From an uncultured Bacteroidales bacterium (GTDB lineage Bacteria > Bacteroidota > Bacteroidia > Bacteroidales > UBA10428), in the NCBI GenBank assembly GCA_964534745.1, contig CAZHQW010000008.1, positions 5,156-69,155 on the forward strand: DNA of 64,000 nucleotides, read 5' to 3'. This document shows positions 1,803 to 32,673 of this stretch, in pieces. The position numbers and the translations under genes are program-made. The notes under the pieces are model-generated. The model saw only the letters and a program-made list of their open reading frames with translations. It was not told where the DNA came from and did not search any database. Position 1 is the first letter of the stretch. Every line of letters starts with the position of its first letter.

Positions 1803-2693
1803 TTATTTTTCCAGTTCCTTTAAGTCTTTATAGCTAACCAGCTTGATATTCTTTTCCCTGATAATTCCTTTTATTTTATCGTTTGTAAACACTCGTAGTA
1901 CAGACTCACGATCTTCCGCAACATCTTCATAACCTTTGTGCCAAATAGCCTGCATTTCCGGACAATCTTTGGCTGGATGGTCGATTAATATATATAAGCC
2001 AGGTTTCAGATTTGTTAGATTATAAGCCATGCTATCAATTTTTTCTTCTGTACTTTTTGCGTTTCCCCAGCCTTTAAAACGAGATGCGCCATAGGTTGAC
2101 AAGTCAAGATCTATGTTATACTCAATAGCCAGCTTTTTCATCAGTTCACTAATTTGCGGATCGAGTTGAGCAAAGCCCATATGTCCTCCCATATGCGTGA
2201 TATGTGGCACGTTTCTTATCCCCATATTAATCTGGGCTCTGAGTTCCTGCTCAATTTCTTCAATTTTCCAATCGGCTTTTTGTAAAGATGTGTTTGGAGG
2301 AAAATCTTCTCTTTGCCAAACCATGGGATAAAAGTATCCATTGGAATCTGTTAGATCAGGACAATACGTTATCGGTCGCCATTTCATATTTTCCCATTCG
2401 CTGGTAAGTACTAAATGTAGGCCTACATCTAATCCGGAATTTTCATTAAGCAATTTAACCGCTTCAGGAAACCATGGGCAAGGCACCATAAGTTCAACCG
2501 AACGCATGATACCTTCTTTATACGATTCAATACAGCCTTTATTAGCTGCATGTGACGAACCCATATCATCGCCACGAACCAACAACCAGACTTCATTTTT
2601 CGGTATTTGTTGTGCGTTGCAAACCAAAGATGTAAAAAGAATAAAAGGAAAAAGGAAATAACATTTTCTCATAATACATATTTTTAAAAACAT
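1803..2693 (-). CDS. YdjC/ChbG-family carbohydrate deacetylase-like protein, secreted
   Basis: 296-aa ORF. The YdjC-type N-terminal motif is present: LLVRGDDMGSSHAANKGCIESYKEGIMRSVELMVPCPWFPEAVKLL..GLDVGLHLVLTSEW. The signal peptide is best read from the internal ATG at 2672 (MRKCYFLFPFILFTSLVCNAQQ). Confidence 0.7.
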   Translation of the reverse strand: MFLKICIMRKCYFLFPFILFTSLVCNAQQIPKNEVWLLVRGDDMGSSHAANKGCIESYKEGIMRSVELMVPCPWFPEAVKLLNENSGLDVGLHLVLTSEWENMKWRPITYCPDLTDSNGYFYPMVWQREDFPPNTSLQKADWKIEEIEQELRAQINMGIRNVPHITHMGGHMGFAQLDPQISELMKKLAIEYNIDLDLSTYGASRFKGWGNAKSTEEKIDSMAYNLTNLKPGLYILIDHPAKDCPEMQAIWHKGYEDVAEDRESVLRVFTNDKIKGIIREKNIKLVSYKDLKELEK

Positions 2694-2972: not shown

Positions 2973-5900
2973 TTAACTATTTATGTATTCTTTAGGCGTT
3001 TTTTTAAACAACTCTCTAAAGCAGGTGGAGAAATATTTTGGATTGTTAAAACCAACAGAATAAGCAACATCCGAAATATTATAATTACCTGTTCTCAATA
3101 GTTTGGCAGCTACTTTTAATCGGATATTTCGTGTAAATATATTTACTGACATACCTGTTAAAGTCTTCAGCTTTTTGTATAGGCTGCTTTTGCTTAGCCC
3201 TAATTCCACAGCAATACTTTCTCCTGATAAATAAGAGTTGTCAATATTTCCCTCAACAAATTTTACGAATCTTTCCAGCAAACCCTGATCGATTTGGCTA
3301 ATGTTCAACCCAGCGGGCAAAGAATTTAAGTCGGATGAAAATTTATTAGCCAGTTGTTCCCTGCTTTTCAGAATGTTTTTGATCCGAATTTTCAACACCT
3401 CCAAATTAAACGGTTTGGTGATATAATCATCAGCTCCTGTCTCTAATCCGGATATCTGATATTCCTGTTCAGACCTTGCGGTAAGCAGGAATACTGGTAT
3501 ATGACTGGTGGAAACATCGCACTTAATTAATTTGCACAATTCAATACCATCCATTTCAGGCATCATAACATCACATATTACTAAATCGGGCAGTTGTTCT
3601 TTTGCAAGATTTAATCCCTCTTTACCATTAGAGGCAACAATAACATGGTAATGTTGATTAAGCTCTTTTAATAAAAATTGCTGCAAATCCAGGTTATCTT
3701 CAACAATCAGTACTTTCATCCGATCACTTATGCTTTCAGTAATTCCTAATCCAATTTCGCTCTGGAATTCAGGTGAAGTAAGCATGGATTTCGAGAACTC
3801 GAACGAATAGGCGGATTCTTGTTCTTTGTCAGAAAGAATCTCCTCTTTTTTAAGGTGCGATGATGTTACAGGCAGAAAAACTTCAAATGTTGTTCCTTTA
3901 CCTTCCTCACTTTGCACTTTAATTTCACCGTAATGAGTCTTCACCAGGTCTTTTACCAAGGACAAGCCAATACCTGAACTGATTTTACCAGATGCTTTCC
4001 TTCCAGTAATTTGAAAAAAACGATCAAAAATATTAGGTATGTATTTTGGGGGTATACCTGGGCCAGTGTCACTAACACTTATGCATATTGTTTTATTTCC
4101 TTTGAGTTGCACCGCTCCGGAAATTGAAACTTCAACTTTTCCGCCTTCAGGTGTATGCTTTATTGCATTTGAAATTAAATTATAAAATATTTTTTCAATT
4201 TTATCGCTATCAAAAAACAGATTCAAGTTTTCTTTTTCACTCAAAAACCTGTAATCAATATCTTTCTTATCAGCATAGGAAATAAACAACTGAAATATTT
4301 CGTACATGAATGTAACAATATCATCCTCCTGTGTCTCTAACCGCAGATTTCCAGTCTCTACTCTGCGAATTTCAAGTAGTTGATTGATCAATCTAAACAG
4401 TCTTTTCCCATTCCGGTATATCAGATTCAGATCTTCTTTTACCTGTGTGGTTTCCAAATAGTTATTCTTACCAAGGAGTTTCTCTAAAGGGCTAATTATT
4501 AAAGTCAGCGGTGTTCTGAACTCATGAGATATGCTTGTAAAAAAGTTCAATTTCATTTGATCCGATTCGTGCAATTTATTAGCCATGTCAAGGATTTCAA
4601 CTTTTTGGTTCTCAAGTACTTCATTGGCTTGTTTCAGGTCTTTGGTGCGCTCCTGAACCAGCAGACGAAGAATATCTTTCTGATGTTTTAATACCTGTGT
4701 GCGAATGCGTATAACTCCAACAATTAATAACAGTATAAATAATATTATACTCAGTTTAAACCAAACCTGGCCCCAAAATGGTGGCAACATATAAATTTCA
4801 AGTTCAAGTGGTTTATCAGACCAGATACCATCACTATTGGTACTATGAATCTTGAGCTTATATTCTCCACTGGGTATATTTGTGTAGTTTGCAAAGCGTT
4901 GTTTGGAATTAACTTCATTCCACTCCTCTTCAAAACCTTCCAGTTTATATCTGTACTTAACTTTTTTCGGAGCTACCATATGTGTAGAGGCAAATTCAAA
5001 TGACAGGATTTTATCGTTGTGATTTAAAATTATATTGGAAGTGTACGAGATTGATTTATTAAGGATTACGCGCCCATCAACGGTATCATTGGCAGATACC
5101 GGATTCTGATTAATTTTAAAGGCTGTCAAAACAGCCTCCCCTTTATAAGGATTATCTTTGATTTCTTCAGGATTGAAATAACTTATACCATTCACACCAC
5201 CAAAATACAATACACCGGATTTGCTTTTGAAATATGCGCCTTCATTAAATTCATTGCTTTGTAACCCGTCTTCATAGGTATAAAGCTTGAATTGTTCTGT
5301 TATCGGATCAAAACGTACTAATCCTTTATTCGTACTTATCCATAACTTGCCGGTATTATCCTCCAATATACCTAATATCGTATTATTTGGAAATCCTATT
5401 TCCATGGTATACGATTTAAACACACCTGTCTTTTTGTCGAACTTGTTTAAGCCACCATTTGTCCCAATCCAAAGAATATCTTCTCCAATGATCTCCGGCT
5501 CAAGAATACACCGCACATAATCATTTGAAATGGTATTGTTATCTGATGGATTATTAATAAAGTAAGAGAATTTACCGGTTACCGGATCAAAACGGTTTAA
5601 ACCACCTGTGAGGGTACCTATCCATATAATATGATCTTTATCTTCGATAATGATATTTATCCAGCTGTCGTTGGTCCCATTATCTCCTCTCCCTGAAACA
5701 GGAAAATATAAAAAAGACTTACCGTCACTATTCAATTTACATAATCCATTTTCTGTGCCTCCAAAATACACATCTCCTGAACTTGTTTCACAAATTGACC
5801 TCATAGACCAAATCTGAAAAGCACTACTATCATTTTCATTCTGGTGAAAATTCAAAAATCGGTTTTTGACAGGATCATAAAGACTTATTTTATAATCAAA

Positions 5901-7421
5901 TGAGCCCATCCACAACTTATTATCTTTGGTCTCTTTTATAACGCCAACAAGCTTTGCAGATAAATTATCTGAATATTCCCAGGTAATGCCTGTTTTCAAT
6001 ATCCGTTTGTTCTTAAATCCCTTCATATTACCATTCATCAGGTTTATCTTATTAAGTTCCAGTGCTGTACCTACCCATAAATTGTTTTTTGAATCTTCGC
6101 AAATGGAATATACCTGATTATTAGTCAGGTGGGGGTTGTTCCTTGGGTTATCGTTTAAATTTCTAAACTTCTTTGCATAGAGATCAACTTTGTACACACC
6201 CCCTTTTTCTGTTCCTATCCAAAGCAACCCATTCTTACCTTTACAGAAAAATTGAACATTCTCACCACCAAAACTATATGCACTATTTTTATCTTTTTCA
6301 AAAACCTGAATATCAGTCATATTGGGATGAATTCGAAATATTTTAAGAAGATTACGACCACCACTTCCTATCCATATATAACCGTTATCATCTTCAATGA
6401 TTTGTGATACCTGCACATTTGAAATTTCTTGTATCCGCTCCAGCTGAATACCTTCTTTATCCTTTAATCTATGATAGAGTCCTTGTTCAGTACCAATTAG
6501 TAAATTTCCAGAAGTGGTATTATAAATTTGGTAAACAGTAGGTTCGTAATTTGGGTTTAACGGCTCTTTAATGAGCTGTATATACTTAGCCTGTTCATCG
6601 CTGTATGCATTGTTTAGAATATACAGTCCATTATGGACAGTGCCAATCCAAACAGTGCTGTCGGGTTCAAAATGAATACATGAAATAACAGTTAAATGCT
6701 CAGCATCTTGTTTATTGTCCGAAGTGAAGTAGCATTTTATCTGACCTGTCTTTTTATTCAACCTGTTTAAACCATTGTGTGTACCTATCCATAAATATCC
6801 AAATTTATCTTCAGCAATAGTCGTAATGCTATCGCAACTCAAGCTATTACTACTACATGTTTTATGCCTTAAGGACTCAAAGCTGTCTGTTTCACGTATA
6901 TATTTATTCAGCCCTTTATCGGTAGCTATCCATAGTGTGCTCTCCTGGTCTTCAAAAAAACGCACATAATTTATTTCAACAGAAGAATAGAAAGAATTAC
7001 TGGAAATACTCTCATGATTTAATGAATCGGGGCAGTAGCTATAGAAAGTTTCTTTTTGAGGATCGAACCGGTCCAGTCCTTTATCTTTATAGAAAATCCA
7101 TATTTGTCCGTACTTATCTTTGTATAAGTCATTAATCCAGTTTTTTGACGGTGTTTTGTTACTTTTGCCGGCATAATAAACTTTGAATTCATATCCGTCG
7201 TAACGGTTTAAGCCATCCTGAGTGCCAAACCATAAAAACCCTAAATCATCTTCAACCATATCTAATACCAGCGAATGTGAAAGACCTTCTTCCAGACTTA
7301 GCTGATAAAATCTCATATTAGTAAACTGCCCTTTGGTAAACGCACTGAATAATAAACAAGTACCAATTAGAAGGCATTTTGCTACCATGCTAACAATATA
7401 TCTGTTGTATCTTAAAAACAT
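2973..7421 (-). CDS. hybrid two-component system (HTCS) sensor kinase/response regulator with AraC-type HTH
   Basis: 1482 aa. It has many propeller repeats (..WIGT..GLNRF/KY..), a Y_Y_Y region (KVKYRYKLEGFEEEWNEV) and a TM helix (FKLSIILFILLLIVGVIRI). The kinase part shows an H-box (FFTSISHEFRTPLTLI) and HATPase boxes (NLISNAIKHTPEGG, DTGPGIP, GIGLSLV). A receiver domain follows (VLIVEDNLDL..DLVICDVMMPEMDG), then an AraC HTH (YSVGFNNPKYFSTCFRELFKKTPKEY). Confidence 0.9.
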   Translation of the reverse strand: MFLRYNRYIVSMVAKCLLIGTCLLFSAFTKGQFTNMRFYQLSLEEGLSHSLVLDMVEDDLGFLWFGTQDGLNRYDGYEFKVYYAGKSNKTPSKNWINDLYKDKYGQIWIFYKDKGLDRFDPQKETFYSYCPDSLNHESISSNSFYSSVEINYVRFFEDQESTLWIATDKGLNKYIRETDSFESLRHKTCSSNSLSCDSITTIAEDKFGYLWIGTHNGLNRLNKKTGQIKCYFTSDNKQDAEHLTVISCIHFEPDSTVWIGTVHNGLYILNNAYSDEQAKYIQLIKEPLNPNYEPTVYQIYNTTSGNLLIGTEQGLYHRLKDKEGIQLERIQEISNVQVSQIIEDDNGYIWIGSGGRNLLKIFRIHPNMTDIQVFEKDKNSAYSFGGENVQFFCKGKNGLLWIGTEKGGVYKVDLYAKKFRNLNDNPRNNPHLTNNQVYSICEDSKNNLWVGTALELNKINLMNGNMKGFKNKRILKTGITWEYSDNLSAKLVGVIKETKDNKLWMGSFDYKISLYDPVKNRFLNFHQNENDSSAFQIWSMRSICETSSGDVYFGGTENGLCKLNSDGKSFLYFPVSGRGDNGTNDSWINIIIEDKDHIIWIGTLTGGLNRFDPVTGKFSYFINNPSDNNTISNDYVRCILEPEIIGEDILWIGTNGGLNKFDKKTGVFKSYTMEIGFPNNTILGILEDNTGKLWISTNKGLVRFDPITEQFKLYTYEDGLQSNEFNEGAYFKSKSGVLYFGGVNGISYFNPEEIKDNPYKGEAVLTAFKINQNPVSANDTVDGRVILNKSISYTSNIILNHNDKILSFEFASTHMVAPKKVKYRYKLEGFEEEWNEVNSKQRFANYTNIPSGEYKLKIHSTNSDGIWSDKPLELEIYMLPPFWGQVWFKLSIILFILLLIVGVIRIRTQVLKHQKDILRLLVQERTKDLKQANEVLENQKVEILDMANKLHESDQMKLNFFTSISHEFRTPLTLIISPLEKLLGKNNYLETTQVKEDLNLIYRNGKRLFRLINQLLEIRRVETGNLRLETQEDDIVTFMYEIFQLFISYADKKDIDYRFLSEKENLNLFFDSDKIEKIFYNLISNAIKHTPEGGKVEVSISGAVQLKGNKTICISVSDTGPGIPPKYIPNIFDRFFQITGRKASGKISSGIGLSLVKDLVKTHYGEIKVQSEEGKGTTFEVFLPVTSSHLKKEEILSDKEQESAYSFEFSKSMLTSPEFQSEIGLGITESISDRMKVLIVEDNLDLQQFLLKELNQHYHVIVASNGKEGLNLAKEQLPDLVICDVMMPEMDGIELCKLIKCDVSTSHIPVFLLTARSEQEYQISGLETGADDYITKPFNLEVLKIRIKNILKSREQLANKFSSDLNSLPAGLNISQIDQGLLERFVKFVEGNIDNSYLSGESIAVELGLSKSSLYKKLKTLTGMSVNIFTRNIRLKVAAKLLRTGNYNISDVAYSVGFNNPKYFSTCFRELFKKTPKEYINS

Positions 7422-13442: not shown

Positions 13443-13458
13443 CAGTAAAAATTTTATT

Positions 13459-18972: not shown

Positions 18973-19163
18973 AGTTAGCAAGATTTATATTAGTAATTGA
19001 AATTATCTTTTACAATTCTATATCTTTTCAAAAATACTTTCAAGACTTCTTTCAGGAGGTGACTATATTCCAAAATGAGTTTGTTATATTGTAATAATCA
19101 TCATCCTGGCAATAAGGGAATTTACATAAATTGTTTTTACTGGCTTTCCATGATTCTGCGGTA

Positions 19164-22007
19164 TTAATTTGCGGTTTTTACATTCAGAATCAGGTTTAGC
19201 CTGGCCAGTTTCCCTTTGGGTTCCACAACAAACGGAACATTCCCGGGCAGTTCAAGATTAAAAATTAAGTTTTCTCCCTGAATATGCCAATCTACCTTTA
19301 CTAAACCAGCCGGGTGCGGAACCGCTCCTTTGGCCCAGGTAACATTTTCTGTTTGGGGTTGAATCAACACCGTGTCGCGTGAGAATGCCTGGTTAAAACC
19401 TACTTTTACTCCTAAAATTTCGGTGGATAAAAAATAAGTAGGATGACCGCTCCAGGCATGGCTTGCTGTTCCCTGCCCATCATTATTTTCTGCACCAATA
19501 TCAAAGTTCTCCCATGAGGTATCATCTCCCTGATGTATCATCCGGGACCAGAATTGCTTCATGAATCGTTCTGCCAATGCCGCTTCACCATTTTGGTATA
19601 ATGCTGCAAACAGGTAAAACGCACCATAAGGTGTAGTCTTACGATTACGGCTTTCTTCTCTGATATCTATTAACTCTTCGTCAAGATAGTTAATTAACTT
19701 TTGTTTTTTTTCAACATCGTCAACAACGTTAAAAAGTAGTGGGTAGTAAGAGGAAATAGGGTAATGGTGATCAATCTTCCGGCCATTCTCATAACCATCA
19801 AAAAATGAATGGAGTTTCTCATCCCAAAATAATTTGTTAATTACGGCTTTTAATGCCTCTGCTCTTTTTAAAAATTCCAATACATCGTCCGTGTATCCGA
19901 AATCAGTGGCTAAATCCTGCATCATTTTAAATGAGCCATATAATAATGCCTGGTAGGCAGTTAAATCGGCTGTTTTTGGAATTCTTGTCCACTCCAAAAA
20001 GACATTCCCGGCCTGGTAATATCCATCAGAAGTAATTTTCTTTTCCAAATGATTCAGGTACGTTTTATAATTTGGATAAAGCAACTTTGCGAAAATGGAA
20101 TCTCCGGTATATTTGTAGTACCAGTATAATTCAATTAAAGTTTTTAAAATGAAATCATTATGCCTGTTTTCTGAACCCGTTGTCATCTCTTCCCTATACA
20201 TATCCTGAAATAGAACGAGTGATTTTTTTATCAAACGGCTTTCACCTGAAGTGGCCAGGGTAATGGCATATTCCGGTAAGGCGTCTCCCGCATACAATCC
20301 TCTTTCGCGGAAGGGAGTGTCGATGTATGAATCTTCCGAGCAAACCCGGAGAGTACGCCAGCCCAATTCCCAGATTTTGTTTAACATGGGGTCGGAACAT
20401 TCAAACCAACCGGCTTTTTCATAAGGGTAAACCTGCTCAATCACACCTAGCTGACGAATTTTCACCTTTTGGTTTTGAACCGGTACTACCTTGACTATAA
20501 TATAACGAACCCCATAAGGTTTAAAGGTGGCATATCGGTTTTGTGTTCCGTTGGTTATAAAACGGGCGCCCGAATTAATTTGCATACGTTTGTATAAATA
20601 GGGCATTTGGTATTTATTTAAATCTTCACTCCACCCCAATTCTATTACTGTTCCTTTTGGTGCATTAACATCAATAAATAATCTGCCCAGTGTTTTATGT
20701 CCCATATCGAAAACATAGTACCGGGGTCCTGTGGTTACAAAATCTCTTGTCTGATAATCATTTTCCTTTAGATTATTAAAAAAGTCGGGGTGGTGCCAGA
20801 CAAGTTCCCTGGCAGGATTCTCAATTCTTTTACTGTATGATTGGCTATGCCAGTTTAAGCTATCGAGGGATTTTAATAATTCTTTTTCATTAGTTTTAAA
20901 TTTATTTACCCATTCAACCGATTGTTCTTCGCTTGGTGGGGCTAAGGTTTTAAAAAAAATTGTGCCTTTTTTTTTCTTATCTGCTGCAAATTGCAATCCT
21001 GAATTTGCAGGCATAGCCACCGTAAATTCCCATGCTCCCCATATGGCCCGGTAATATACAAAGAGATAGTTCCATCCCTTTTTGAGTTTAAATATCCGAT
21101 TTTCCCTTACCGGATTTGAATTACTTCTTGAACTTACATGTAAAGGCCCTTCTCCATTCAGATAATAATCGCCCCACCAGGTACCCAGTTCAATTTCCTG
21201 ATCTTTTGGCGAGAAAACATAGGTATACCCCAGCATATTTTGACCTGAGTTATATTCTGTGGCTGTTTCATCAGGAGTTTTTACATAAAATGAAGATATG
21301 ACTTCATCTTTTTGTTCCTTGAATATGCCAAGGCATGAAAGGGGTGTCTTTTCGTTCTGAGTCAGGTGCGGAATTGTCCGGGGAGTTAGCTCTCCCCAAT
21401 GGCCTTGATTTTTAATTGGCACAGGAGTCTGCCAACCCTGGTCATTAAAGGTGATATTCTGCCAGCCGGAAGGTTCTTTATTCAAATCCTGATTTTCTAA
21501 AGCTCCGCATGCAAATGAAAACTTAATGGTATTGGTGTCCATTGATGCTACAGGAAGCATTTTCCAATTACCGGGTGTTTCTAAATTTATCTCATTACCC
21601 GTGCTTTCAATAACTGATCCCCATGCAATGAAACCTCCAATACTTTTGGGTAATTGAAATGTTTCCATTCCATTGGCCAGCACTTCAACGGCAATTACAT
21701 TTTCACCTTCTTTAAGATAATCCTTCATTTCATAGGTATCATATTCCGGATGAGCCAGATAAAATCTGGAGGGGCCGAAATTAATATGGGTTCCGTTAAC
21801 ATAGAGATGATATCTGGAATCGGCAAACAGATGAATTTCAGATCCCGATGGCATTTCACTTAATTCAAAGCTATATCGGAATAACACTTTTTGCTGCCGC
21901 CCTCTACCTTCGGTATCTTTCCATACAAATTTTGCAGGATGGTTATTTGCCATGACTTGCAATATCGCCATAGATAAGATAAAAGTGATGTGTAGTCTAT
22001 TGTTCAT
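19164..22007 (-). CDS. GH78-related alpha-L-rhamnosidase-family protein (six-hairpin catalytic domain), secreted
   Basis: The start is the ATG at 22007 (MNNRLHITFILSMAILQVMANN); the track start 22028 is a TTG that overlaps the upstream stop. GH78-type motifs are present: WFECSDPMLNKIWELGWRTLRVCSEDSYIDTPFRERGLYAGDA and GTASHAWSGHPTYFL. Confidence 0.65.
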   Translation of the reverse strand: MNNRLHITFILSMAILQVMANNHPAKFVWKDTEGRGRQQKVLFRYSFELSEMPSGSEIHLFADSRYHLYVNGTHINFGPSRFYLAHPEYDTYEMKDYLKEGENVIAVEVLANGMETFQLPKSIGGFIAWGSVIESTGNEINLETPGNWKMLPVASMDTNTIKFSFACGALENQDLNKEPSGWQNITFNDQGWQTPVPIKNQGHWGELTPRTIPHLTQNEKTPLSCLGIFKEQKDEVISSFYVKTPDETATEYNSGQNMLGYTYVFSPKDQEIELGTWWGDYYLNGEGPLHVSSRSNSNPVRENRIFKLKKGWNYLFVYYRAIWGAWEFTVAMPANSGLQFAADKKKKGTIFFKTLAPPSEEQSVEWVNKFKTNEKELLKSLDSLNWHSQSYSKRIENPARELVWHHPDFFNNLKENDYQTRDFVTTGPRYYVFDMGHKTLGRLFIDVNAPKGTVIELGWSEDLNKYQMPYLYKRMQINSGARFITNGTQNRYATFKPYGVRYIIVKVVPVQNQKVKIRQLGVIEQVYPYEKAGWFECSDPMLNKIWELGWRTLRVCSEDSYIDTPFRERGLYAGDALPEYAITLATSGESRLIKKSLVLFQDMYREEMTTGSENRHNDFILKTLIELYWYYKYTGDSIFAKLLYPNYKTYLNHLEKKITSDGYYQAGNVFLEWTRIPKTADLTAYQALLYGSFKMMQDLATDFGYTDDVLEFLKRAEALKAVINKLFWDEKLHSFFDGYENGRKIDHHYPISSYYPLLFNVVDDVEKKQKLINYLDEELIDIREESRNRKTTPYGAFYLFAALYQNGEAALAERFMKQFWSRMIHQGDDTSWENFDIGAENNDGQGTASHAWSGHPTYFLSTEILGVKVGFNQAFSRDTVLIQPQTENVTWAKGAVPHPAGLVKVDWHIQGENLIFNLELPGNVPFVVEPKGKLARLNLILNVKTAN

Positions 22008-22020
22008 ATATAAAAATCTT

Positions 22021-24543
22021 TCACTCAAGTATAAATTTCACTTTATATACTCCTTTCCCACTAATTTTCATAAAGGCATAATTAGACGATTCCACCTTTT
22101 TGATACCGGTATCAACAGCTTTATCATTTACAAACGATGCTATAACCTGTCTTCCTTCAGGTAATAAAACCTGTAAATCGGTTTCGTCCTGAGTCCCGGT
22201 AAAAGTAAGGTAAATCTCATTCTTTGTTTTAAGGTATTTATAACTTATATAGGCTTTTGATGCTTCGTATTTTATTGTTACACTTACTTCTTTTTCGTTT
22301 GCTGCTTCCCACCGGGGAGTAAGTAATACATTATTGAAAGACTGTCCCTGATCTTTAACTCCGGCCAGCCCTTCAACCAATGCATATACCACAGCAGCAG
22401 CACCCCAATTATCGGGAATACCCCCGGATATGATATCAGGTGTGAACAAAACATCGGTGTCAGAAAGGCTTAGCCCTAAAACCATCCATTTGGTACCATC
22501 TTTTGCTGCATCAAATACAATTTCACTAATTAACTTATCGGGCTGAGGGTTATTTAGTCCATACACGCCTACGCCAACTTTATCTGAAAACTTGTTTTTT
22601 CCTGTCCATGCCACTTGAAGATTAGGCATTTGCTTTCTGTCTTGAGGCGCAGCAGGATACCACCAGGAAGTAATTTTTCCGGGTGTAATATAGTCCAAAG
22701 TACTACTCCCATCTGCATATCTTATTGTTATGCTTCCGCAAAAAGTAGTTTTATTCGCGGTATGGAGAAAATAAATTGATTTCGCCTTTTTACCCACATT
22801 TATCCTGGCTTGTTGCGCATAAGCTGAATCTTCAGACAAACCTAAACAGGCCTTTCTGCCATTTTCCTCAGGGTCAATTATAGTAAACTCGATCCCTTTA
22901 AATATCTGCTTCCCGGTGGGGAATTCATGTAAATCGTTTTCACCTTCATTGGTCCAACCCATTACGCCCTTTTGTGTATTGCCTGCAAAATCGGTGTTTG
23001 CTACTTCTTTGAGGCTTATAGGTGTAAAAGTCCTCCCGGGCTCTTCCGGCATTTGACCACGATAGGTGCAATGAAGATAATTGTCAGTTTTCTTTGCTAA
23101 TGCCAATTGTCTATCCAATATATCTACCCCGTATTGCTCAAAGCCATGTTCGAAAGCCCCATGGGCCAATTCACCGGCTACAATGGAAGTTACACCCCCA
23201 TTCATATAATTCCATTTTGAATTATGGCCTTCATATCCATTCTCAAAGGGAGGATAAATGGTATAGAATTCCCCGGGTGAAGTGGCAGGCATTTCCATTC
23301 TGATCTGCTGATAGGTATTAATAATATTCACCGCCTTATCGTGCGAAATCCCACGGTTTAAGGAGTAGGCGTTTGATAATGAAACCTGTGTTTTTTCGTC
23401 AACACCTAAATCTCTTTTAATTGAAGTATCCTCTGGGACATGATGCGTAAAAAATTCACCATTCCACGAAAGCTTGTTCAATCGGACTTCAAGATCGTCA
23501 CTTAACTGCTGAATTTTTTCAGCCTCTTCTTTTCTGCCAGCAACATTCAACATTTCACTCAAATAACGGCAAGCGGCGATCATCCCGGTATTATCGCCAA
23601 ACATAATTCCAAATCGTGTATGTTCAGCAGTAACAATCATTGCATCAGGCATATTTCCTTCTCCTACAGAGATAGCGGCATCTTCATCGTTCTGAAAATC
23701 CCATGTATCGATGGTATATCCCCGTTTAAGCAATTGATATTTATCTGACCATCTATACGGACTTGTAGTACTATATTCCAAAGCCTTAAGTGCTTTATCG
23801 ATCATCCCTTTCATCCACTCCGTATCTCCTGTAGCCTTCCATGTGTAATAAATTCCTTCGATGAACAGATATTCCACATCATTTTCAACAGGGATACGGG
23901 TAAAAATCATGTCATTACCTTCAAAATACTTTACAAAATCTCCATACCTGAACCGTTGAATCCAATAGCTTCCGGGAGCCTGATCATAATTATCCCAGAT
24001 CATGCCATCTTCCCGCTGTGAATCTCCATAAAGATCAATTCCGCTTTTAACCTCGGGATAGAAATACTTCATACCTTTCAATGTATGCACATGGTCGCGT
24101 AACCACCCCACAAAAGTGTGATAATATTGTCCATTAAACCGTCGTACATCACTCTCACGTTTCCATTCTCCGGTCATGGAATGATAAAGCACATCGAGCA
24201 ATTCCCTATATTTTCCGGAGGCATCATTTATTTCTGTTTTGCAATCGACGGTGAACGTTATCATGTCAAGCAGAACACCCTTTTTGCTTTTCAATAAAAT
24301 ATTATGAGAGCCCAGAGTGCCGCCAACAACCATTTTCACTTTCTCTTCAATTTCAGAAGAAAAGTACCTGTAACTCTTGCCATCGTATACTTCAATTTGT
24401 CCTTTGGTTTCAGAGAAAATAACAAGCGTATCAAGAGGCTGGTAAGTCTCTTTCTTATCAACAATTTTTAAGGATAGTTGTGGAAAAACTGTTACACCAA
24501 TAAACAAAAAAGCTATTAAAAGTAATATCCTTTGTTTTTTCAT
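22021..24543 (-). CDS. secreted 840-aa protein of unassigned family; possible (alpha/alpha)6 glycosidase-like core plus a C-terminal beta-sandwich
   Basis: The ORF is long and clean, with signal peptide MKKQRILLLIAFLFIGVTVFPQ. Only weak hints of a fold are visible (FVGWLRDHVHTLKG, YTIDTWDFQ, WNYMNGGVTSIVAGELAHGAFEHG). It sits in the PUL between GH78-like and GH116-like genes. The existence of the CDS is near certain; its function is not. Confidence 0.45.
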   Translation of the reverse strand: MKKQRILLLIAFLFIGVTVFPQLSLKIVDKKETYQPLDTLVIFSETKGQIEVYDGKSYRYFSSEIEEKVKMVVGGTLGSHNILLKSKKGVLLDMITFTVDCKTEINDASGKYRELLDVLYHSMTGEWKRESDVRRFNGQYYHTFVGWLRDHVHTLKGMKYFYPEVKSGIDLYGDSQREDGMIWDNYDQAPGSYWIQRFRYGDFVKYFEGNDMIFTRIPVENDVEYLFIEGIYYTWKATGDTEWMKGMIDKALKALEYSTTSPYRWSDKYQLLKRGYTIDTWDFQNDEDAAISVGEGNMPDAMIVTAEHTRFGIMFGDNTGMIAACRYLSEMLNVAGRKEEAEKIQQLSDDLEVRLNKLSWNGEFFTHHVPEDTSIKRDLGVDEKTQVSLSNAYSLNRGISHDKAVNIINTYQQIRMEMPATSPGEFYTIYPPFENGYEGHNSKWNYMNGGVTSIVAGELAHGAFEHGFEQYGVDILDRQLALAKKTDNYLHCTYRGQMPEEPGRTFTPISLKEVANTDFAGNTQKGVMGWTNEGENDLHEFPTGKQIFKGIEFTIIDPEENGRKACLGLSEDSAYAQQARINVGKKAKSIYFLHTANKTTFCGSITIRYADGSSTLDYITPGKITSWWYPAAPQDRKQMPNLQVAWTGKNKFSDKVGVGVYGLNNPQPDKLISEIVFDAAKDGTKWMVLGLSLSDTDVLFTPDIISGGIPDNWGAAAVVYALVEGLAGVKDQGQSFNNVLLTPRWEAANEKEVSVTIKYEASKAYISYKYLKTKNEIYLTFTGTQDETDLQVLLPEGRQVIASFVNDKAVDTGIKKVESSNYAFMKISGKGVYKVKFILE

Positions 24544-24567
24544 CTGTTTATAATTTATTTTCGTTGG

Positions 24568-25722
24568 TCAGACAGATTCAGGTAGCCACCTTTTGATATG
24601 CTCCGGGTTACTGGTTCGAATGTCCCCCCTATTTATTGGATTTTTAATTTTTAAAACGCGATAGTATTTAAACGGAATAGAATTGATCCCCCTGTCCTCC
24701 CACTCTGAGAGCTTTCCTTCCCACGATTTATCCTGGTACCCCCATAGACCTTCAGCATAAATGGGTTGCCCCTGGGCTATATCCACAATCACCATACCGT
24801 ATTTCTTCAATGCATTAGCAACCACAGTTTCTTCTTTCGTTAAATCGAACTGGCTTAAATCAAGTTGTGGGTCGAGTTGGATAACTGCCCCTTCGGGAAT
24901 ACCCCCTTCCACAAATCCATCGGTCCAGGATGCCGGATAAACAAAAATTTGTTTAGCAGCAAAACGTGTTGCACAAGAAAGCTTATGCCTGATTTCACCT
25001 TCCATTACTTCATCGTACCGGATCAATCCGGCAATAGCAGGAACACCTGAAGCCCTGCTTGGCCCATGGAAATGAACACTCTCATCCTCTACATAACCCA
25101 GTTCATAGCTATTGAAAACGCCGTCTCCATCGAGCCGGTAAAACATGCCGGTTTTTGACTGCCAGGAGCCATCTTCCAGTTGCTTTAGTCCCCACATATC
25201 CCAGGCTATCATCCTTTTCCAATCCACCACGGCAAAATGTGCATCCTCCTCTATATCAGGTCTTGCTCCGGCAGGAATTGGAACAGGATTGAAACCTGGT
25301 CCATGGCCAAAATGTGTCCTTTCATTTTTAGTAATCCAGACTTCTTTTTTCTTTTCATCCAAAGGGTGCTTTTTGACATGGACATATTCTGTATTTTCAT
25401 CGACTTCATAAACAGGAATCGTCCACTTCCGAAAAACAGTGCCAAAATTTTCACCGGTAGGTTCCTGTTCAAGCATTTTTATCCATTTATCACTGCTGGG
25501 ATCAATTTCCGGATTGTCACCGATGGGCTGATTCCAAAAACTATCATCAGAAAAGAATCGTTGAACTGTTTCTTTCTCATTCACTGTATTGGATTCCTTT
25601 TTTGTAGATTCTGAACTTTGGCTGCCACAGTTCGAAAAGACCATTCCTATGATTATCAAAAGAAGTATGGTCTTTACTTTATGGCCTACTTTTATTAAAT
25701 TGAATAATAGTCTTTTATCCAT
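24568..25722 (-). CDS. lipoprotein of unknown function embedded in the PUL (384 aa)
   Basis: The start is the ATG at 25722 (MDKRLLFNLIKVGHKVKTILLLIIIGMVFSNCGS, lipobox); the track start 25749 is TTG. I recognise no family. Conserved-looking blocks are FFSDDSFWNQPIG, FGHGPGFNPVPIP and HGPSRASGVPAIAGLIRYDEVMEGEIRHKL. Confidence 0.5.
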   Translation of the reverse strand: MDKRLLFNLIKVGHKVKTILLLIIIGMVFSNCGSQSSESTKKESNTVNEKETVQRFFSDDSFWNQPIGDNPEIDPSSDKWIKMLEQEPTGENFGTVFRKWTIPVYEVDENTEYVHVKKHPLDEKKKEVWITKNERTHFGHGPGFNPVPIPAGARPDIEEDAHFAVVDWKRMIAWDMWGLKQLEDGSWQSKTGMFYRLDGDGVFNSYELGYVEDESVHFHGPSRASGVPAIAGLIRYDEVMEGEIRHKLSCATRFAAKQIFVYPASWTDGFVEGGIPEGAVIQLDPQLDLSQFDLTKEETVVANALKKYGMVIVDIAQGQPIYAEGLWGYQDKSWEGKLSEWEDRGINSIPFKYYRVLKIKNPINRGDIRTSNPEHIKRWLPESV

Positions 25723-25956
25723 AGTACAAAATTTAATTTTGTTAGTCAAGAACTCAATTTAGTAAAAAAAATAACAACTAAACTTATCGGTAAAGCGGGA
25801 AAATATCCGAATCAGTTAGGGCATGTAGGAAATTCCATCGATGTTTTCAAATATTCGGCAAGGGTAGAAATTTCTTTAATCTCATTGTATATAAGTATTT
25901 AAATATTTTTTCCCGTCGCGAAGCTTAGATAAATTTTACAAATTTTTTTGAATATA

Positions 25957-28626
25957 CTATTTATTAGATGTGATTTCAAGTTTTTGACTTGCCGGTATTG
26001 TTATGTAATTAGCAAAGCTTATTATTAATTGATTATTTGTAAAGATTATTTCTTTTGGTTCCAGTGCCTTATTGTTTAATCTAACCTTTATATTTTTGTT
26101 TTTTACAATTGATGATTTGATTTTTATTTCATGCAAATGCTGACTTCCGGTAAGTGTTTCAAGATAAACGGAACCATTTTTTTGAATGTAGTGTGCTGTA
26201 CCATTTGGACCAGCAAAGAACATCTTGAAGTTTTGTTCCCTGTTTTTGGGTGCAAAGCTATATACCCCCTGTTTTATGGATAATCCCAAATATGCATTCA
26301 TGATGGCCCATGCCGACATGGGTCGGTAGTAATGACCTCCAAACTCCTGATGATCCCAATATAACCCTGCCTTTCGGTAGCGGTCATCAACACCCTTTAT
26401 CACTTTTAAACCCTCTTCGAGCATATCCTCATATATTAAGAACGATGCAAAGGCTAACTCTACACCTGTCCAGGGAGTATTGGCCTGATCGACCCATAAA
26501 TCAGAAGAGTGAATAGGGAAAAGTTCAGGATGTTCCGGCCATGAACAGTTTCGCAGGAATGAATTATCGATAAACGATTTTTCCAGAATGCTCTCCAATG
26601 ATTTTTTTACCTTTTCGGGTTCAATTAGGTATCCAATACCCGCACAATGCGCTATCCATTGACCAATTAGCTGGTCAGTCAAGCATCCTTCATTAACGCC
26701 ATTAACTCCATTATAATCATTTGAGAGCCTGTAATATGATCCATTCCATAACTTTTCATTCATTAATTGGTTTCCTTTTCTGGCTATAGCTTCATACTTT
26801 TCTTTCATTTCAGGTTCCCCCATTTCTTCAGCAGCTTGAGCAGCCATGGTAAGTGCTGCAATCCACTGCGATTGAATATAAGAAGCCAGACCATACATCG
26901 GAAAGTTGTCGTAACTACACATAATACCTTCCATGTCGGGCATTTGATCACCATCTTTATCACGATGATTAAGGATGTAATCGATTCCCAGTTTGATGGA
27001 AGGCCACATCTCTCGGAGGTAAGCTTTGTCATTGGTCCAGAAATAATCACGTAAAACCATCTGGATATAATTTGGCACTAAATCAACACGCTCGTATACG
27101 CCCCAGGTTCCATTATGATTAAAATCGGGATCGTAACCTAATCCATGATTAATCTCACCCGCTTTGGTCTGTAATTCCCGGTGTGCACGCATCATTGACT
27201 TCTGCAGCTCCGGAAACAGGGCAACAACCATTTGAGATCCATAGAGCGCAACATCAATTGTGGCAGCGGCTCCCCATGATTGATAGGAGGAAAGACCTTC
27301 CCTTATCACATATTTTCCGGCTTTTGATAAAGTTGATGAGGTAATAAAAGTATTTAGCTGCGAATTAACCTGATCAAGCACAAACTGTTCAATATCCGAC
27401 TGATACATATTATCGACAAAGCGACGGCTCTCATTTTTTAAGGTATCCCGGTTTTTTACAAAATACCCGGCAATATCTTCAAGGCTGTTAAGCGTATTCT
27501 GATAATAATGTCCAATATTTTTTGTGTATTTCAGGTTTGCACTATACCGTTCGGGCCAGCCTTTACCGGATGAAGCATTATCCGCTTTATACTGTACTGC
27601 GCCATAATTATTGGGAAAATACCAGTTCATAAAAAACACAGGGTGAAATTTATCCCCTTTGTTTAATTTATGAGACACGGCAATTGAGCTTAAGCATCGC
27701 TGATCATTGTCAAGGCCACTAATTCGACCAATTAAACGGCCATCTGTTGTTTTTGTGTTACGGTTTGGGGTGTCATCAATATTCGCTAGTTTTTTCGAAA
27801 TCAGCAACATCTCGTAATAGGGGTGTTTGTGTTCCCATCCCAGATAGTATGAAACTTCATCTTCGCCAATGGCACCAAGTCCCATTTGTCCGTAACTCGA
27901 TTGTTTTTCATCCATCCCTTCAGCTTTATGGACAAAAAATTTATAGTCCTCTTTTTCGATTAATTCAGATGCAAAAGAGCGGTTTATCATATCGTAACCC
28001 ACCAAATTTCTGAGTGTTCCCAAAAGCATCACGTCGACAGGTTTGTCGGTTTTAGAAACCAGCTCAAAATTAAAATAGATACCTGGTAAGGAAGAATTTG
28101 CCACATCGTGAGGAATAAATGGAGAGAAAGCTTCCATTTCAATATCAAAAGGCATCTCTGAATCGGTGAATTTCATATGCACAAACGGAAAGCGGCCGCT
28201 GTATTCAATGTTCTCAACTGCTTCCATCCAGGGGTAATAATATATAATTCCTTCCAATGCACCTTCACTTAGTGAATTATTTATTTGTAAAAGCTTTATT
28301 TTGGGCTGTTCCCCGTCAATTTGATAACGAACCAGAAAAAATAAATAGCTATCATCCACATGCTTATTGGGTAATGTTGGAAGTTCAAAAACAGGACCCG
28401 TGCCATGTGGATAGTTGTTAAAGATGGACCAGTTATAAAAATTCCCATCTCGACGGAGTTCAATACTTCCGGTACCTATTCCCCCCAGGGCTATTCCGCT
28501 GCGAACTGCTGATGATGACGTATAAGTTTCTTTTAAGGGTATTTTATTGTCAATGGATGAGTCCGGGTCACTGCAAGCAACCCATAATATTAATCCCAAA
28601 ATGTAGAAAATCTGTTTAGTTTTCAT
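25957..28626 (-). CDS. GH116-like glycoside hydrolase (GBA2-type beta-glucosidase family), lipoprotein
   Basis: 889 aa with a lipobox (ILGLILWVACSD). The GH116 N-domain signature is present (SGIALGGIGTGSIELRRDGNFYNWSIFNN), followed by a long helical C-terminal catalytic-type region. Confidence 0.65.
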   Translation of the reverse strand: MKTKQIFYILGLILWVACSDPDSSIDNKIPLKETYTSSSAVRSGIALGGIGTGSIELRRDGNFYNWSIFNNYPHGTGPVFELPTLPNKHVDDSYLFFLVRYQIDGEQPKIKLLQINNSLSEGALEGIIYYYPWMEAVENIEYSGRFPFVHMKFTDSEMPFDIEMEAFSPFIPHDVANSSLPGIYFNFELVSKTDKPVDVMLLGTLRNLVGYDMINRSFASELIEKEDYKFFVHKAEGMDEKQSSYGQMGLGAIGEDEVSYYLGWEHKHPYYEMLLISKKLANIDDTPNRNTKTTDGRLIGRISGLDNDQRCLSSIAVSHKLNKGDKFHPVFFMNWYFPNNYGAVQYKADNASSGKGWPERYSANLKYTKNIGHYYQNTLNSLEDIAGYFVKNRDTLKNESRRFVDNMYQSDIEQFVLDQVNSQLNTFITSSTLSKAGKYVIREGLSSYQSWGAAATIDVALYGSQMVVALFPELQKSMMRAHRELQTKAGEINHGLGYDPDFNHNGTWGVYERVDLVPNYIQMVLRDYFWTNDKAYLREMWPSIKLGIDYILNHRDKDGDQMPDMEGIMCSYDNFPMYGLASYIQSQWIAALTMAAQAAEEMGEPEMKEKYEAIARKGNQLMNEKLWNGSYYRLSNDYNGVNGVNEGCLTDQLIGQWIAHCAGIGYLIEPEKVKKSLESILEKSFIDNSFLRNCSWPEHPELFPIHSSDLWVDQANTPWTGVELAFASFLIYEDMLEEGLKVIKGVDDRYRKAGLYWDHQEFGGHYYRPMSAWAIMNAYLGLSIKQGVYSFAPKNREQNFKMFFAGPNGTAHYIQKNGSVYLETLTGSQHLHEIKIKSSIVKNKNIKVRLNNKALEPKEIIFTNNQLIISFANYITIPASQKLEITSNK

Positions 28627-31113: not shown

Positions 31114-32673
31114 ATGAAGAATACAAAACCAATTTCCGCTGATTCCAAAAAAACGGAAAACAAAATCGATCGCCGCAAGTTTATTGGTGGATTGACGACT
31201 GCTGCCGTTGGTGTAACTATTATTCCGGCGCACGTTCTGGGCAGGCCGGCCCATATTGCACCAAGTGATAAAATCAATGTGGCCTGCATTGGTTTGGGAA
31301 CGCAGGGTTTACGCCAGTTGCAGGCTTTACTCGAGATTCCTGAGGTACAAGTAACAGCCGTATGTGACCCTCAACGAAAAGCACTTGGTTATTACGACTG
31401 GGACCCAACCTCCCTGCGCGATCAAATGCGTAAACTAATCGGGGATCCCAACTGGGATACTGGTGGTAACAACACCATTCCGGGTGGTTTGAATAATGGT
31501 AAGGAGATTGTTGAGGCCTATTACGCGCATGCCCGTTCAGAGCCGAAATTCAAAGGATGCAACGCATACACCGATTTCCGTGAACTCTTTGCCAAAGAAA
31601 AGGGCATCGATGCCGTACAAATAATGACCACCGACCATATGCACGGTATAATATCGGCAGCAGCATTAAAGCGCAACATTGCAGTAACCATGCATAAGCC
31701 CCTTGCCAACCGCTTGATTGAGGGAAAGAAAGTGATCGACATGGCGCATCAATCGGATGCGGTTACCCACCTGATGCCCTGGGACTCCAACGGATCGATG
31801 GATCAGATCATAGCCTGGATCAACGGCGGTGCCATTGGTGAATTGAAAGAGATACACAACTGGTCGTTCCGTCCGGTTTGGCCTCAATACGCCACCATTC
31901 CGACCGATACTCCTGAAATTCCCGAAGGATTTGACTGGAACCTATGGTTAGGTCCTGAAGCCGGGCGTTCTTACCATCCCCATTACACCAATATGGTTTT
32001 CAGGGGCTGGTATGACTTTGGCGGTGGCTCCATGGCCGATATGGGGCACTACAGTTTATGGACCGTTTTTGAAGCATTGAAACTGGAGAAACCAACAGTA
32101 ATAGAACCTTGTCTGAGTCACGTTTATGGAATCAAAGAGGATGGTTCGGCTTTCAAAGTTTACAACGACTATTCCTTCCCGTTTGCCTGTTCGGTGCGCT
32201 TTAAGTATCCGGCCATAAAAGATCGGCCGGCGGTTGATTTGGTATGGTACGATGGCGGAATGCGCCCTCCGGTTCCACAGGAATTCTACGACAAAGGAAT
32301 CGAGTTTCCGTCAGAGGGTATGATGTTCAGAGGAGACAAGGGCATCATCATGACTTCCGGATTTAAGGTGGAAGATCCTTATCTGCTGTCGGGTGAGGTG
32401 AAGGAGACCAGGGAAGTTTCTGCAGCATCGGGTGCTGTAAAAATACCTGGCGTAAAACGTTTTATCGAAGGTGTGAAGAAGAACGAACAAATTGCCGGAA
32501 GTTTCCGTCAGGCATGGCCAATTACTGAAGCGGTAAACCTGTATGCCGCTGCGCTACGTGCTAATAAAACATTAATCTATGATGCCGACCGAATGAAGGT
32601 GATCAACGACGAGAAAGCCAACAGCTACCTTGACCGTAACTACCGCAAAGGCTGGAAACTCGAAGATATGTAA
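31114..32673 (+). CDS. Tat-exported Gfo/Idh/MocA-family oxidoreductase (GH109-like / glycoside dehydrogenase-like)
   Basis: 519 aa. It has a twin-arginine signal (IDRRKFIGGLTTAAVGVTIIPAHVLG) and a Rossmann start (INVACIGLGTQGLRQL..VTAVCDP). The family block NLWLGPEAGRSYHPHYTNMVFRGWYDFGGGSMADMGHY is present. Confidence 0.85.
   Translation: MKNTKPISADSKKTENKIDRRKFIGGLTTAAVGVTIIPAHVLGRPAHIAPSDKINVACIGLGTQGLRQLQALLEIPEVQVTAVCDPQRKALGYYDWDPTSLRDQMRKLIGDPNWDTGGNNTIPGGLNNGKEIVEAYYAHARSEPKFKGCNAYTDFRELFAKEKGIDAVQIMTTDHMHGIISAAALKRNIAVTMHKPLANRLIEGKKVIDMAHQSDAVTHLMPWDSNGSMDQIIAWINGGAIGELKEIHNWSFRPVWPQYATIPTDTPEIPEGFDWNLWLGPEAGRSYHPHYTNMVFRGWYDFGGGSMADMGHYSLWTVFEALKLEKPTVIEPCLSHVYGIKEDGSAFKVYNDYSFPFACSVRFKYPAIKDRPAVDLVWYDGGMRPPVPQEFYDKGIEFPSEGMMFRGDKGIIMTSGFKVEDPYLLSGEVKETREVSAASGAVKIPGVKRFIEGVKKNEQIAGSFRQAWPITEAVNLYAAALRANKTLIYDADRMKVINDEKANSYLDRNYRKGWKLEDM

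Follow-up and report, generated by a model that had tools for sequence, protein, structure and literature searches.

Gene layout of the locus

We analyzed a stretch of 64,000 nucleotides from contig CAZHQW010000008.1 of an uncultured Bacteroidales bacterium, hereafter referred to as the window, and two adjacent genes in it, designated A and B. Both lie in a single polysaccharide utilization locus (PUL), which runs along the minus strand between about 29 and 1.8 kb of the window (Table 1) and is recognizable as a PUL by the adjacent SusC-like and SusD-like genes, the co-oriented glycoside hydrolase (GH) genes and the regulator, all of them on the minus strand. An earlier note, made from the sequence alone, had described A and B as genes of secreted proteins of no recognizable family, lying between GH116-like and GH78-like genes of the same direction, and had proposed them as candidates for new families of carbohydrate-active enzymes (CAZymes). 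The listing of open reading frames (ORFs) and the translations showed its coordinates, protein lengths, quoted motifs, N-terminal signals and both intergenic gaps (24 and 13 nt) to be correct, and the Pfam matches of the flanking genes bore out the placement.

The 24-nt gap separates the stop codon of B from the start of A, while the 13-nt gap separates the stop codon of A from the ATG of the next gene (22007); the mechanically called TTG start of that gene (22028) would overlap A by 8 nt. Between the GH116 gene (25957) and the start of B there are 234 nt, in which no terminator-like site was detected, and scanning for promoters and terminators yielded no more matches than expected by chance. 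The mechanically called ORF of B spans 24568..25749 (-) and yields 393 aa from a TTG codon; the product of the 384-aa form, which begins at the ATG given in Table 1, is 100% identical to the database protein P0121. The closest genome (L007), a metagenome-assembled genome (MAG) of an uncultured Bacteroidales, has an identical gene order, with protein identities of 95-98%.

Table 1. Genes of the PUL and segments of proteins A and B (positions in the window; T9SS, type IX secretion system; CBM, carbohydrate-binding module)
Feature	Position	Strand	Remarks
GH116-family lipoprotein gene	25957..28626	-	PF04685 1.5e-52, PF12215 4.6e-39; upstream of B
ORF B	24568..25722	-	384 aa, lipoprotein signal, ATG start at 25722
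B 1-32, lipoprotein signal ending at Cys32	25627..25722	-	
B ~55-370, conserved single domain	24613..25560	-	D160, R223, E238, H246, D314
ORF A	22021..24543	-	840 aa, signal peptide, ATG start
A 25-107, N-terminal beta-sandwich	24223..24471	-	DSSP strands; D54, G78 invariant
A 111-485, main (alpha/alpha)6 barrel	23089..24213	-	helices 111-485
A 506-694, beta-sandwich inserted before last barrel helix	22462..23028	-	DSSP strands
A 711-726, returning barrel helix closing the barrel	22366..22413	-	W713, E724 invariant
A 729-839, C-terminal beta-sandwich	22027..22359	-	R744, W745 invariant
GH78 alpha-L-rhamnosidase-like gene	19164..22007	-	Bac_rhamnosid6H 7e-31; PDB 2okx RhaB 1.1e-67
CBM9 protein with T9SS tail	16693-18981	-	
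SusC-like	13459-16605	-	Pfam Plug, CarbopepD_reg_2
SusD-like	11820-13538	-	Pfam SusD_RagB, SusD-like_3
DUF5018 lipoprotein	directly after SusD		
PA14/Fn3/T9SS protein	between DUF5018 lipoprotein and regulator in transcription order		
Hybrid two-component sensor/regulator	2973..7421	-	Reg_prop, Y_Y_Y, HisKA, HATPase_c, Response_reg, HTH_AraC
YdjC-family carbohydrate deacetylase	1803..2693	-	PF04794 1e-43, signal-like N-terminus; far end of PUL

Protein A

The N-terminus of A (MKKQRILLLIAFLFIGVTVFPQ) is signal-peptide-like. No match of A was found in Pfam-A at E ≤ 0.01, no family in NCBIfam even at E ≤ 1, and nothing significant at E ≤ 1 among the PDB sequences, either with the single sequence or with a profile built from 65 A homologues, so that the statement that A belongs to no recognizable family holds against these three collections for single sequences and profiles alike. 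Both here and in the case of B, the absence of a curated family refers to Pfam-A, NCBIfam and PDB, and CAZy families that have no Pfam model or structure (e.g., GH187) fall outside them. The numbers of relatives detected at E ≤ 1e-3 in a 90%-clustered collection, at least 1,893 for A and 756 for B, show that both are real, conserved genes. The A family was found in Bacteroidota, Fidelibacterota, Planctomycetota, and Verrucomicrobiota, and in three clusters A is fused to a GH43 domain. Wherever a source names a close homologue of A or B, the name is "hypothetical protein," even in NCBI records whose locus tags are recent, and no description of either family was found in the literature on YdjC and PULs, on minor tail proteins of Gordonia phages, on new GH families and on GH174 and GH187, the founding description of GH187 lying outside this coverage.

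The AlphaFold2 model of A, of high confidence (pLDDT 94.3, pTM 0.91), consists of an (alpha/alpha)6 six-hairpin barrel and three beta-sandwich domains. Comparison of this model with the PDB by Foldseek gave 180 matches at E ≤ 1e-3, the best of which were GH78 alpha-L-rhamnosidases (8iwd, 6i60, 3cih, 8hmm, and 2okx; E 5e-12 to 4e-8; 8-10% identity), followed by GH94 phosphorylases, a GH133-type amylo-1,6-glucosidase, GH100 invertases, GH63 and GH116 (5fjs). The matches ranked 7, 19, 20, 22, and 24 are cycloisomaltooligosaccharide glucanotransferases with TM of 0.10-0.14, and, judging by the model, they probably reflect the inserted or another beta-sandwich of A. The faint six-hairpin hints that had been noticed in the sequence are thus substantiated by the predicted (alpha/alpha)6 barrel and by its neighbors from GH78, GH94, GH100, GH63, and GH116. 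In profile-profile comparison with hhalign, for which family alignments were built from genes in the collected loci, residues 156-489 of A matched a 7-sequence GH116 alignment with a probability of 94.2% (E 1.2e-7, 271 columns, 18% identity), and residues 218-437 matched the alignment of the GH78-like neighbor family with 64-67%; the value was 51% for GH94 and 0.1% for the GH97 and GH3 controls. The comparison of A with a single GH78 or GH116 sequence (0.4 and 10%, respectively) was uninformative, and the family alignments alone gave a signal.

In 136 sequences of the A family, 37-72% identical to A, nine acidic residues (D54, D150, D279, D282, D317, E425, E458, E469, and E724) are invariant, being kept in at least 99% of the sequences, as are H367, R274, R478, R744 and many Trp and Tyr residues. 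D150, D279, D282, D317, E425, E458, and E469 belong to the barrel, the motifs of which include WLRDHVH, TIDTWDFQ (with D279, W281, and D282), FGDN (with D317 and N318), WNYMNGG, and GELAHG (with E458). The model of A thus combines a six-hairpin fold with nine invariant acidic residues, and a non-enzymatic fold devoid of catalytic acids was not predicted. The motif TID279-T-W-D282-FQ is positioned at the (D/E)W motif of GH78 and near the segment that hhalign pairs with the nucleophile stretch of GH116, while W147-L-R-D150 at the start of the barrel is presumably comparable to the WxRD motif of GH15.

As for the adjacent GH78 gene of the window, its product has equivalents of D567, E572, D579, and E841 of RhaB, the roles of which we take to be those reported for RhaB itself. 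Since these equivalents are kept, the window GH78 probably is active as a rhamnosidase, as far as can be judged from its sequence, and A does not represent a degenerate duplicate of it.

For the neighborhoods of A we analyzed 84 metagenomic and MAG loci. The commonest neighbor is a GH78-like gene of about 950 codons, found in 12 of the 84 loci and adjacent to A in nine of them. Other recurrent neighbors encode LacI regulators, sulfatases, DUF362/T9SS proteins, GH3, GH28, GH130, beta-helix proteins, DUF5696/GH129-like proteins, GH94, and YdjC. YdjC genes adjoin A homologues in three loci (L090, L109, and L115) and lie at a distance of ≤5 kb in five of 84. GH116 genes occur near A in six of the 84 loci and near B in five of the 79 loci analyzed for that protein. 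In seven loci (e.g., L135, 10925-12109) a gene of the GH130 family (mannoside-phosphorylase-like) is located at a median of 33 bp from the A homologue; the context of this GH130-linked subgroup differs from that of the GH78-linked one.

The occurrence of GH94 among the Foldseek and hhalign matches, together with the GH94 and GH130 phosphorylase genes beside some A homologues, could be taken to mean that A is a six-hairpin protein other than a hydrolase, i.e., a GH94/GH65-like phosphorylase or a polysaccharide lyase (PL) composed of an alpha-barrel and a beta-sandwich. We regard this as most improbable: phosphorylases are normally cytoplasmic, while A has a signal peptide, its best fold and profile matches are the hydrolases of GH78 and GH116, and there is no PL family among its top structural matches. 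The reading of A that we prefer is a secreted glycosidase with the six-hairpin fold that represents a new family at the sequence level and is encoded beside a GH78 rhamnosidase.

Protein B

The N-terminus of B reads ...LLLIIIGMVFSNC-GSQSSES, and a lipoprotein signal is consistent with its Cys32, which at least 90% of 64 homologues share. The AlphaFold2 model (pLDDT 91.4, pTM 0.84) represents a mixed alpha+beta domain, with a low-pLDDT linker at residues 39-49, after the lipoprotein signal. B had no match in Pfam-A at E ≤ 0.01, its best match in NCBIfam (E 0.12) was not significant, and none of the PDB sequences was significant at E ≤ 1, also when profiles from the 64 homologues or from distant relatives were used. 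Neither did Foldseek reveal a structural neighbor in the PDB (best E 0.12, TM 0.10), including any match to CBMs or SusE/F-like proteins. Neither in B nor in any of 56 multidomain proteins distantly related to it is the B domain covered by a Pfam or NCBIfam model, whether of a GH, PL, carbohydrate esterase (CE), CBM or any other family. Thus, neither A nor B has a confident match to an existing GH, CE, or PL family in Pfam, NCBIfam, or PDB sequences. The statement that B has no recognizable family is valid for Pfam-A, NCBIfam, and PDB but fails for viral families, since phrog_17388 matches it.

When 1.84 billion representative proteins were searched with a profile, the B superfamily expanded to 5,753 clusters of 50% identity at E ≤ 1e-3, and 2,634 of them at E ≤ 1e-10. 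Among 92 distant members, whose identity to B is about 34%, at least 95% retain D160, E238, H246, and D314 and 85-95% retain R223, and several Gly and Pro residues are likewise conserved. The close subfamily of B has extra conserved histidines (H140, H162, H217, and H219), those in the motifs FGHGPGF and HFHGPSR being specific to this subfamily; an HxH-type metal site was rejected as a family-wide feature, as these histidines are conserved in the close subfamily only. Close orthologues (51-77% identity) come from Bacteroidota, many Opitutaceae, Pirellulales, Phycisphaerales, Vicinamibacteria, Calditrichota, KSB1, Neomarinimicrobiota, and Melioribacteraceae, the phyla including Verrucomicrobiota, Planctomycetota, and Acidobacteriota; one cultured carrier is Nibricoccus sp. 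IMCC34717, with two copies of B.

The B domain is often a part of larger proteins. It is fused to GH114 in four of the 56 multidomain members, to YdjC in P0252, to GH114_assoc, malectin, and Fn3 in P0294, and to three CBM9 domains and a chondroitinase-B-like (PL6-like) beta-helix in P0274 (3,181 aa); other fusions involve CBM96, CBM2, dockerin, SLH, and CWB2 domains, T9SS tails, and polyhydroxybutyrate-depolymerase-type and other esterases. In locus L090 (16102-19668), it forms the C-terminus of a complete GH3-PA14-Fn3-like enzyme of 1,188 aa. In P0316, P0294, and P0330, CBM or anchor domains accompany the B domain and no other catalytic module is present. Since such members carry just CBMs or anchoring domains in addition to the B domain, the latter is the sole candidate for the catalytic module in them.

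The viral family phrog_17388 matches residues 222-324 of B with E 2.5e-10 and is matched by 53 of the 56 superfamily members. In the BFVD database, Foldseek found the "minor tail protein" of Gordonia phage Guillaume (E 1.8e-18, TM 0.58) and also the model of a Caudovirales protein with parallel beta-helix repeats, while tblastn revealed B homologues in 21 Gordonia phages (about 25% identity over 72% of B). The superfamily HMM (hidden Markov model) recognized Guillaume gp9 (1e-43) and Stormageddon gp18 (2e-39), and the motifs with D160, R223, E238, H246, and D314 are all kept in both. Neither phage protein has a Pfam match, and Stormageddon gp18, the one of the two that was searched against the PDB, has no match there. 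In GenBank this protein is labeled "glycosylhydrolase," in contrast to "minor tail protein" in RefSeq. The gene of Guillaume gp9 (L170, 2284-4533) is situated between the genes of the portal protein and the capsid maturation protease, outside the tail genes, so the label "minor tail protein" may be wrong, and the protein may be an enzyme associated with the head or with ejection.

We read B as a catalytic module because of its set of conserved carboxylate, His, and Arg residues, its position as the sole non-CBM module in some members, its conservation across phyla, and its association with virions. The four polar residues kept almost throughout the superfamily and the fusions typical of carbohydrate-active modules bring B, too, in line with the earlier expectation of an enzyme. 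The main rival explanation is that B is a non-enzymatic glycan-binding module, which serves as a surface lipoprotein here, as a CBM-like domain on enzymes, and as a receptor-binding domain in phages. B is indeed a PUL lipoprotein, as surface glycan-binding proteins are, its domain is fused to bona fide catalytic ones (GH3, GH114, esterases, the PL6-like beta-helix, and YdjC), and its phage homologues are labeled as minor tail proteins, which are often receptor-binding. We nonetheless find a binding role unlikely. The most conserved residues are Asp, Glu, His, Arg, Gly, and Pro rather than the aromatic platforms typical of CBMs; the domain, about 320 aa long, exceeds most CBMs in size and has no CBM or SusE/F-like neighbor in Foldseek; and several proteins combine CBM or anchor domains with the B domain and no other catalytic module. 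Furthermore, the usual slot after SusD is held by the DUF5018 lipoprotein, B being 11 kb away, and a binding protein would rarely keep 51-77% identity over so many phyla.

The phage homologues, being virion proteins, and the SLH or CWB2 cell-wall-binding domains of some bacterial members might also suggest that B is an amidase or peptidase, or a peptidoglycan-type lysin, acting on the bacterial cell wall, and the subfamily histidines H140, H162, H217, and H219 could bind a metal. This seems very unlikely to us, considering that these histidines are not conserved superfamily-wide, that B matches no peptidase or amidase family or structure, that its fusions overwhelmingly involve carbohydrate modules (CBM2, CBM9, CBM96, malectin, GH114, GH3, and dockerin), and that its context in the window is a SusC/SusD glycan locus.

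Genomic neighborhoods of B and the link to de-N-acetylases

De novo clustering of the genes neighboring B revealed no dominant partner gene, and in most loci no partner is conserved, the single recurrent link being that to de-N-acetylases. A YdjC gene lies within 10 kb of B in 10 of 79 loci and is adjacent to it in four; by a rough expectation, a gene present in one or two copies per genome should fall within a 20-kb interval by chance in less than 1% of loci. A de-N-acetylase of the PIG-L/LmbE type directly adjoins B in L171 (6943-7794) and in L013 (91 bp from B), and PIG-L genes lie within about 4.5 kb of B in L020 and L081; in L013 B is flanked by YdjC and PIG-L both. Locus L090 contains consecutive genes for SusC, SusD, DUF5018, a GH30-like T9SS protein, A, YdjC, GH116, the GH3::B fusion and a sulfatase, which is the gene set of the window in another order. 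GH114, to which B is fused in several proteins, is a family of galactosaminidases. As two unrelated families of de-N-acetylases and GH114 are repeatedly linked to B, we suppose that its activity is the cleavage of amino-sugar linkages coupled to de-N-acetylation: B would cleave the glycosidic bond next to an amino sugar, either before or after this sugar is de-N-acetylated.

The gene context also bears on another explanation, namely that A and/or B already belong to a recent CAZy family for which Pfam and NCBIfam lack a model and the PDB lacks an entry, for example, B to the endo-fucanase family GH187. The version 3 of dbCAN could not reliably detect the added families GH174 and GH187 (PMC11685898), which are described as beta-sheet-dominated (PMC12534559); the fucoidan PULs of Planctomycetota contain GH97, GH116, and GH128 together (PMC11685898), all three of which are also present in the window, and sulfatases neighbor homologues of A and B. 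At the same time, in the annotated part of the window (1-39 kb) there is no fucosidase or fucanase of GH29, GH95, GH107, or GH168 and no sulfatase, and B is linked to de-N-acetylases and GH114, not to fucosidases. The uniform naming of close homologues as hypothetical proteins, even in recent NCBI records, also speaks against membership in an existing family. Finally, PMC12534559 cites a published GH174 structure (its reference 35), whereas neither fold nor profile comparison gave B a neighbor in the PDB, the presence of that entry in the searched PDB being unconfirmed. On the whole, we consider an existing family improbable.

Other genes of the window

The best PDB matches of the window GH116 are the exo-beta-D-arabinofuranosidase 8ic6 (5e-35) and TxGH116 (2e-34). 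D-arabinan or arabinogalactan, which the former match and the link of B to Gordonia phages bring to mind as a target, was retained as a lead only, since the beta-glucosidase TxGH116 matches equally well. Residues ~714-721 of the window GH116 read QANTPWTG, while 8ic6 and the L090 homologue have ADEVWTG at this place. The Asp of the latter motif is, as we take it, the acid/base of GH116, and Asn stands in its place in the window GH116 and in the homologue from L015. The PDMEG motif of the nucleophile region is retained in the window GH116. Judging from these motifs, the protein may represent a GH116 subgroup with altered catalysis.

A divergent arm on the plus strand of the locus encodes GH97 and, downstream of it, a GFO/IDH/MocA oxidoreductase (31114-32673, +) and a xylose-isomerase-like TIM protein (32748-33602, +), the latter two with twin-arginine-like starts (RRKFIGG and TRRNFIKT, respectively). 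Genes of GFO, AP_endonuc_2, and 3-keto-disaccharide-hydrolase proteins are likewise found near A and B homologues (L001, L003, and L171), and this pattern hints that glycosides may be processed in the periplasm by an oxidative 3-keto route. The divergent arm is followed by genes of a CBM9-DUF5916 protein (34383-37022, +) and of a Glyco_hydro_cc (GH128-type) enzyme with CBM6/35, PKD, and a T9SS tail (37376-39193, +).

As to the CBM9 protein with a T9SS tail, located between the GH78 and SusC-like genes, its first ~470 residues have no Pfam match and, given that DUF362/CBM9/T9SS proteins are repeatedly encoded next to A homologues (eight of 84 loci, e.g., L001, L086, and L088), may be a further uncharacterized module of this pathway. 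The mechanically called SusD ORF (TTG start) overlaps the SusC ORF by 80 nt (13459-13538), and the true start of SusD is probably the internal lipoprotein signal MKKITIILS...

Discussion

Taken together, these data incline us, with some reservation, to regard A and B as secreted glycan-degrading enzymes of unnamed families, acting in one PUL with GH116, GH78, and YdjC; we infer their enzymatic activity, catalytic residues, and substrate from sequence, predicted structure, and gene context. A would be a periplasmic, probably exo-acting glycosidase on an (alpha/alpha)6 barrel, a very distant relative of GH116 and GH78, with an active site at the mouth of the barrel that may use some of the residues D279/D282, D317, E458/E469, and E724. 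B would be an enzyme of one domain, anchored by a lipid, whose fold has no counterpart in the PDB; catalysis and substrate binding would likely fall to D160, E238, D314, H246, and R223.

Several observations weigh against this interpretation. In the case of A, the catalytic residues of its relatives could not be traced with certainty: the nucleophile region of GH116 (PDMEG) aligns with a gapped stretch of A, in which D279 and D282 are part of an insertion; the acid/base residue of GH116 comes to lie near Asn441 of A in an ambiguous part of the alignment; and the hhalign match to GH78 (A 218-437 vs. residues 621-815 of the GH78-like protein) stops short of the catalytic residues. Moreover, by profile comparison A does have relatives, being a remote homologue of GH116/GH78-type barrels, and because of this relationship it would represent a new family but not a new kind of enzyme. 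As to B, its fusion to catalytic domains (GH3, GH114, esterases, beta-helix) is the pattern expected of a binding module, about 85% of its loci contain neither a deacetylase nor any carbohydrate-active neighbor, and the B loci L004 and L172 are housekeeping contexts. Nor are A and B an obligate pair, an idea that we had to reject: they occur within 10 kb of each other in 4-7 of the 79 B loci and in one of the 84 A loci.

The proposal of new CAZyme families is therefore supported in part, more strongly for B, in view of the size of its superfamily, the absence of a fold match, and the phage relatives, and slightly less so for A. A more far-reaching version of it, which we put forward tentatively and with less confidence than the general one, is that B founds an ancient and very large GH or lyase family of an unseen fold, common to glycan-foraging loci of bacteria and to Gordonia phage virions and acting on linkages of de-N-acetylated glucosamine or galactosamine in bacterial or algal exopolysaccharides or cell-wall glycans, and that A founds a second new GH family, of the six-hairpin fold, with a role in the same pathway.

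Unannotated genes of PULs have repeatedly become new CAZy families, and it is not only where A and B lie that makes a case for them. With A, the six-hairpin glycosidases gain a deep branch that is linked to genes of rhamnosidases in many phyla. B belongs to one of the larger protein superfamilies that still have no Pfam entry, name, structure, or function; its activity, once found, would annotate thousands of genes in Bacteroidota, Verrucomicrobiota, and Planctomycetota from soil, sediment, and aquatic environments and would probably bring to light a new catalytic fold. A further gain might be a tool enzyme for polymers rich in amino sugars, such as chitosan-like, Pel/GAG-like, and cell-wall glycans. 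The linkage to deacetylases is a concrete hypothesis that is cheap to test.

Comparison with known systems

Among characterized enzymes, those of GH78 (RhaB of Bacillus 2okx, Rha-2 of Aspergillus niger 8iwd, DtRha of Dictyoglomus 6i60, and BT1001 3cih) share with A the (alpha/alpha)6 barrel and the flanking N- and C-terminal beta-sandwiches. A differs from them by its low identity (8-10%), by the absence of a GH78 Pfam match, and by the beta-sandwich inserted before the last barrel helix; the RhaB-type DxPxxE...GD and C-terminal WE motifs, present in the window GH78, were not aligned to A. GH116 (clan GH-O; TxGH116, GBA2, and 8ic6) is the best profile-profile match of A and is also found among its Foldseek matches, but A matches neither of the Pfam models DUF608 and Glyco_hydr_116N, and its N-terminal domain is different.

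As for B, the Gordonia proteins of phrog_17388 share a homologous domain with it. They are, however, multidomain virion proteins of 638-749 aa with no signal peptide and with a putative function, while B is a stand-alone lipoprotein of a PUL, and the name of the phage family gives a location, not an activity. The same pattern of discovery, an unannotated domain common to PULs of Bacteroidota and phages of Mycobacteriales, is known for GH172 and GH183 (formerly DUF2961 and DUF4185), which are shared by Bacteroidota PULs and Gordonia phages and proved to be glycosidases (10.1101/2022.07.22.500997). There is no sequence relationship in this case; DUF2961 and DUF4185 match neither A nor B, and the substrate of these enzymes is D-arabinan.

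With regard to the pathway, the logic of a deacetylase followed by a glycosidase (PMC9402603, and partly general knowledge) is realized in the pairs ChbG/YdjC and ChbF of E. coli and PIG-L-type Dac and GlmA of Thermococcus, where, like in the A/B/YdjC set, a de-N-acetylase adjoins a gene of a glycosidase or glycosidase-like protein. ChbF (GH4) and GlmA (GH35) are unrelated in sequence to A and B, and, while the chb pathway is cytoplasmic, the components of the A/B/YdjC set are all secreted.

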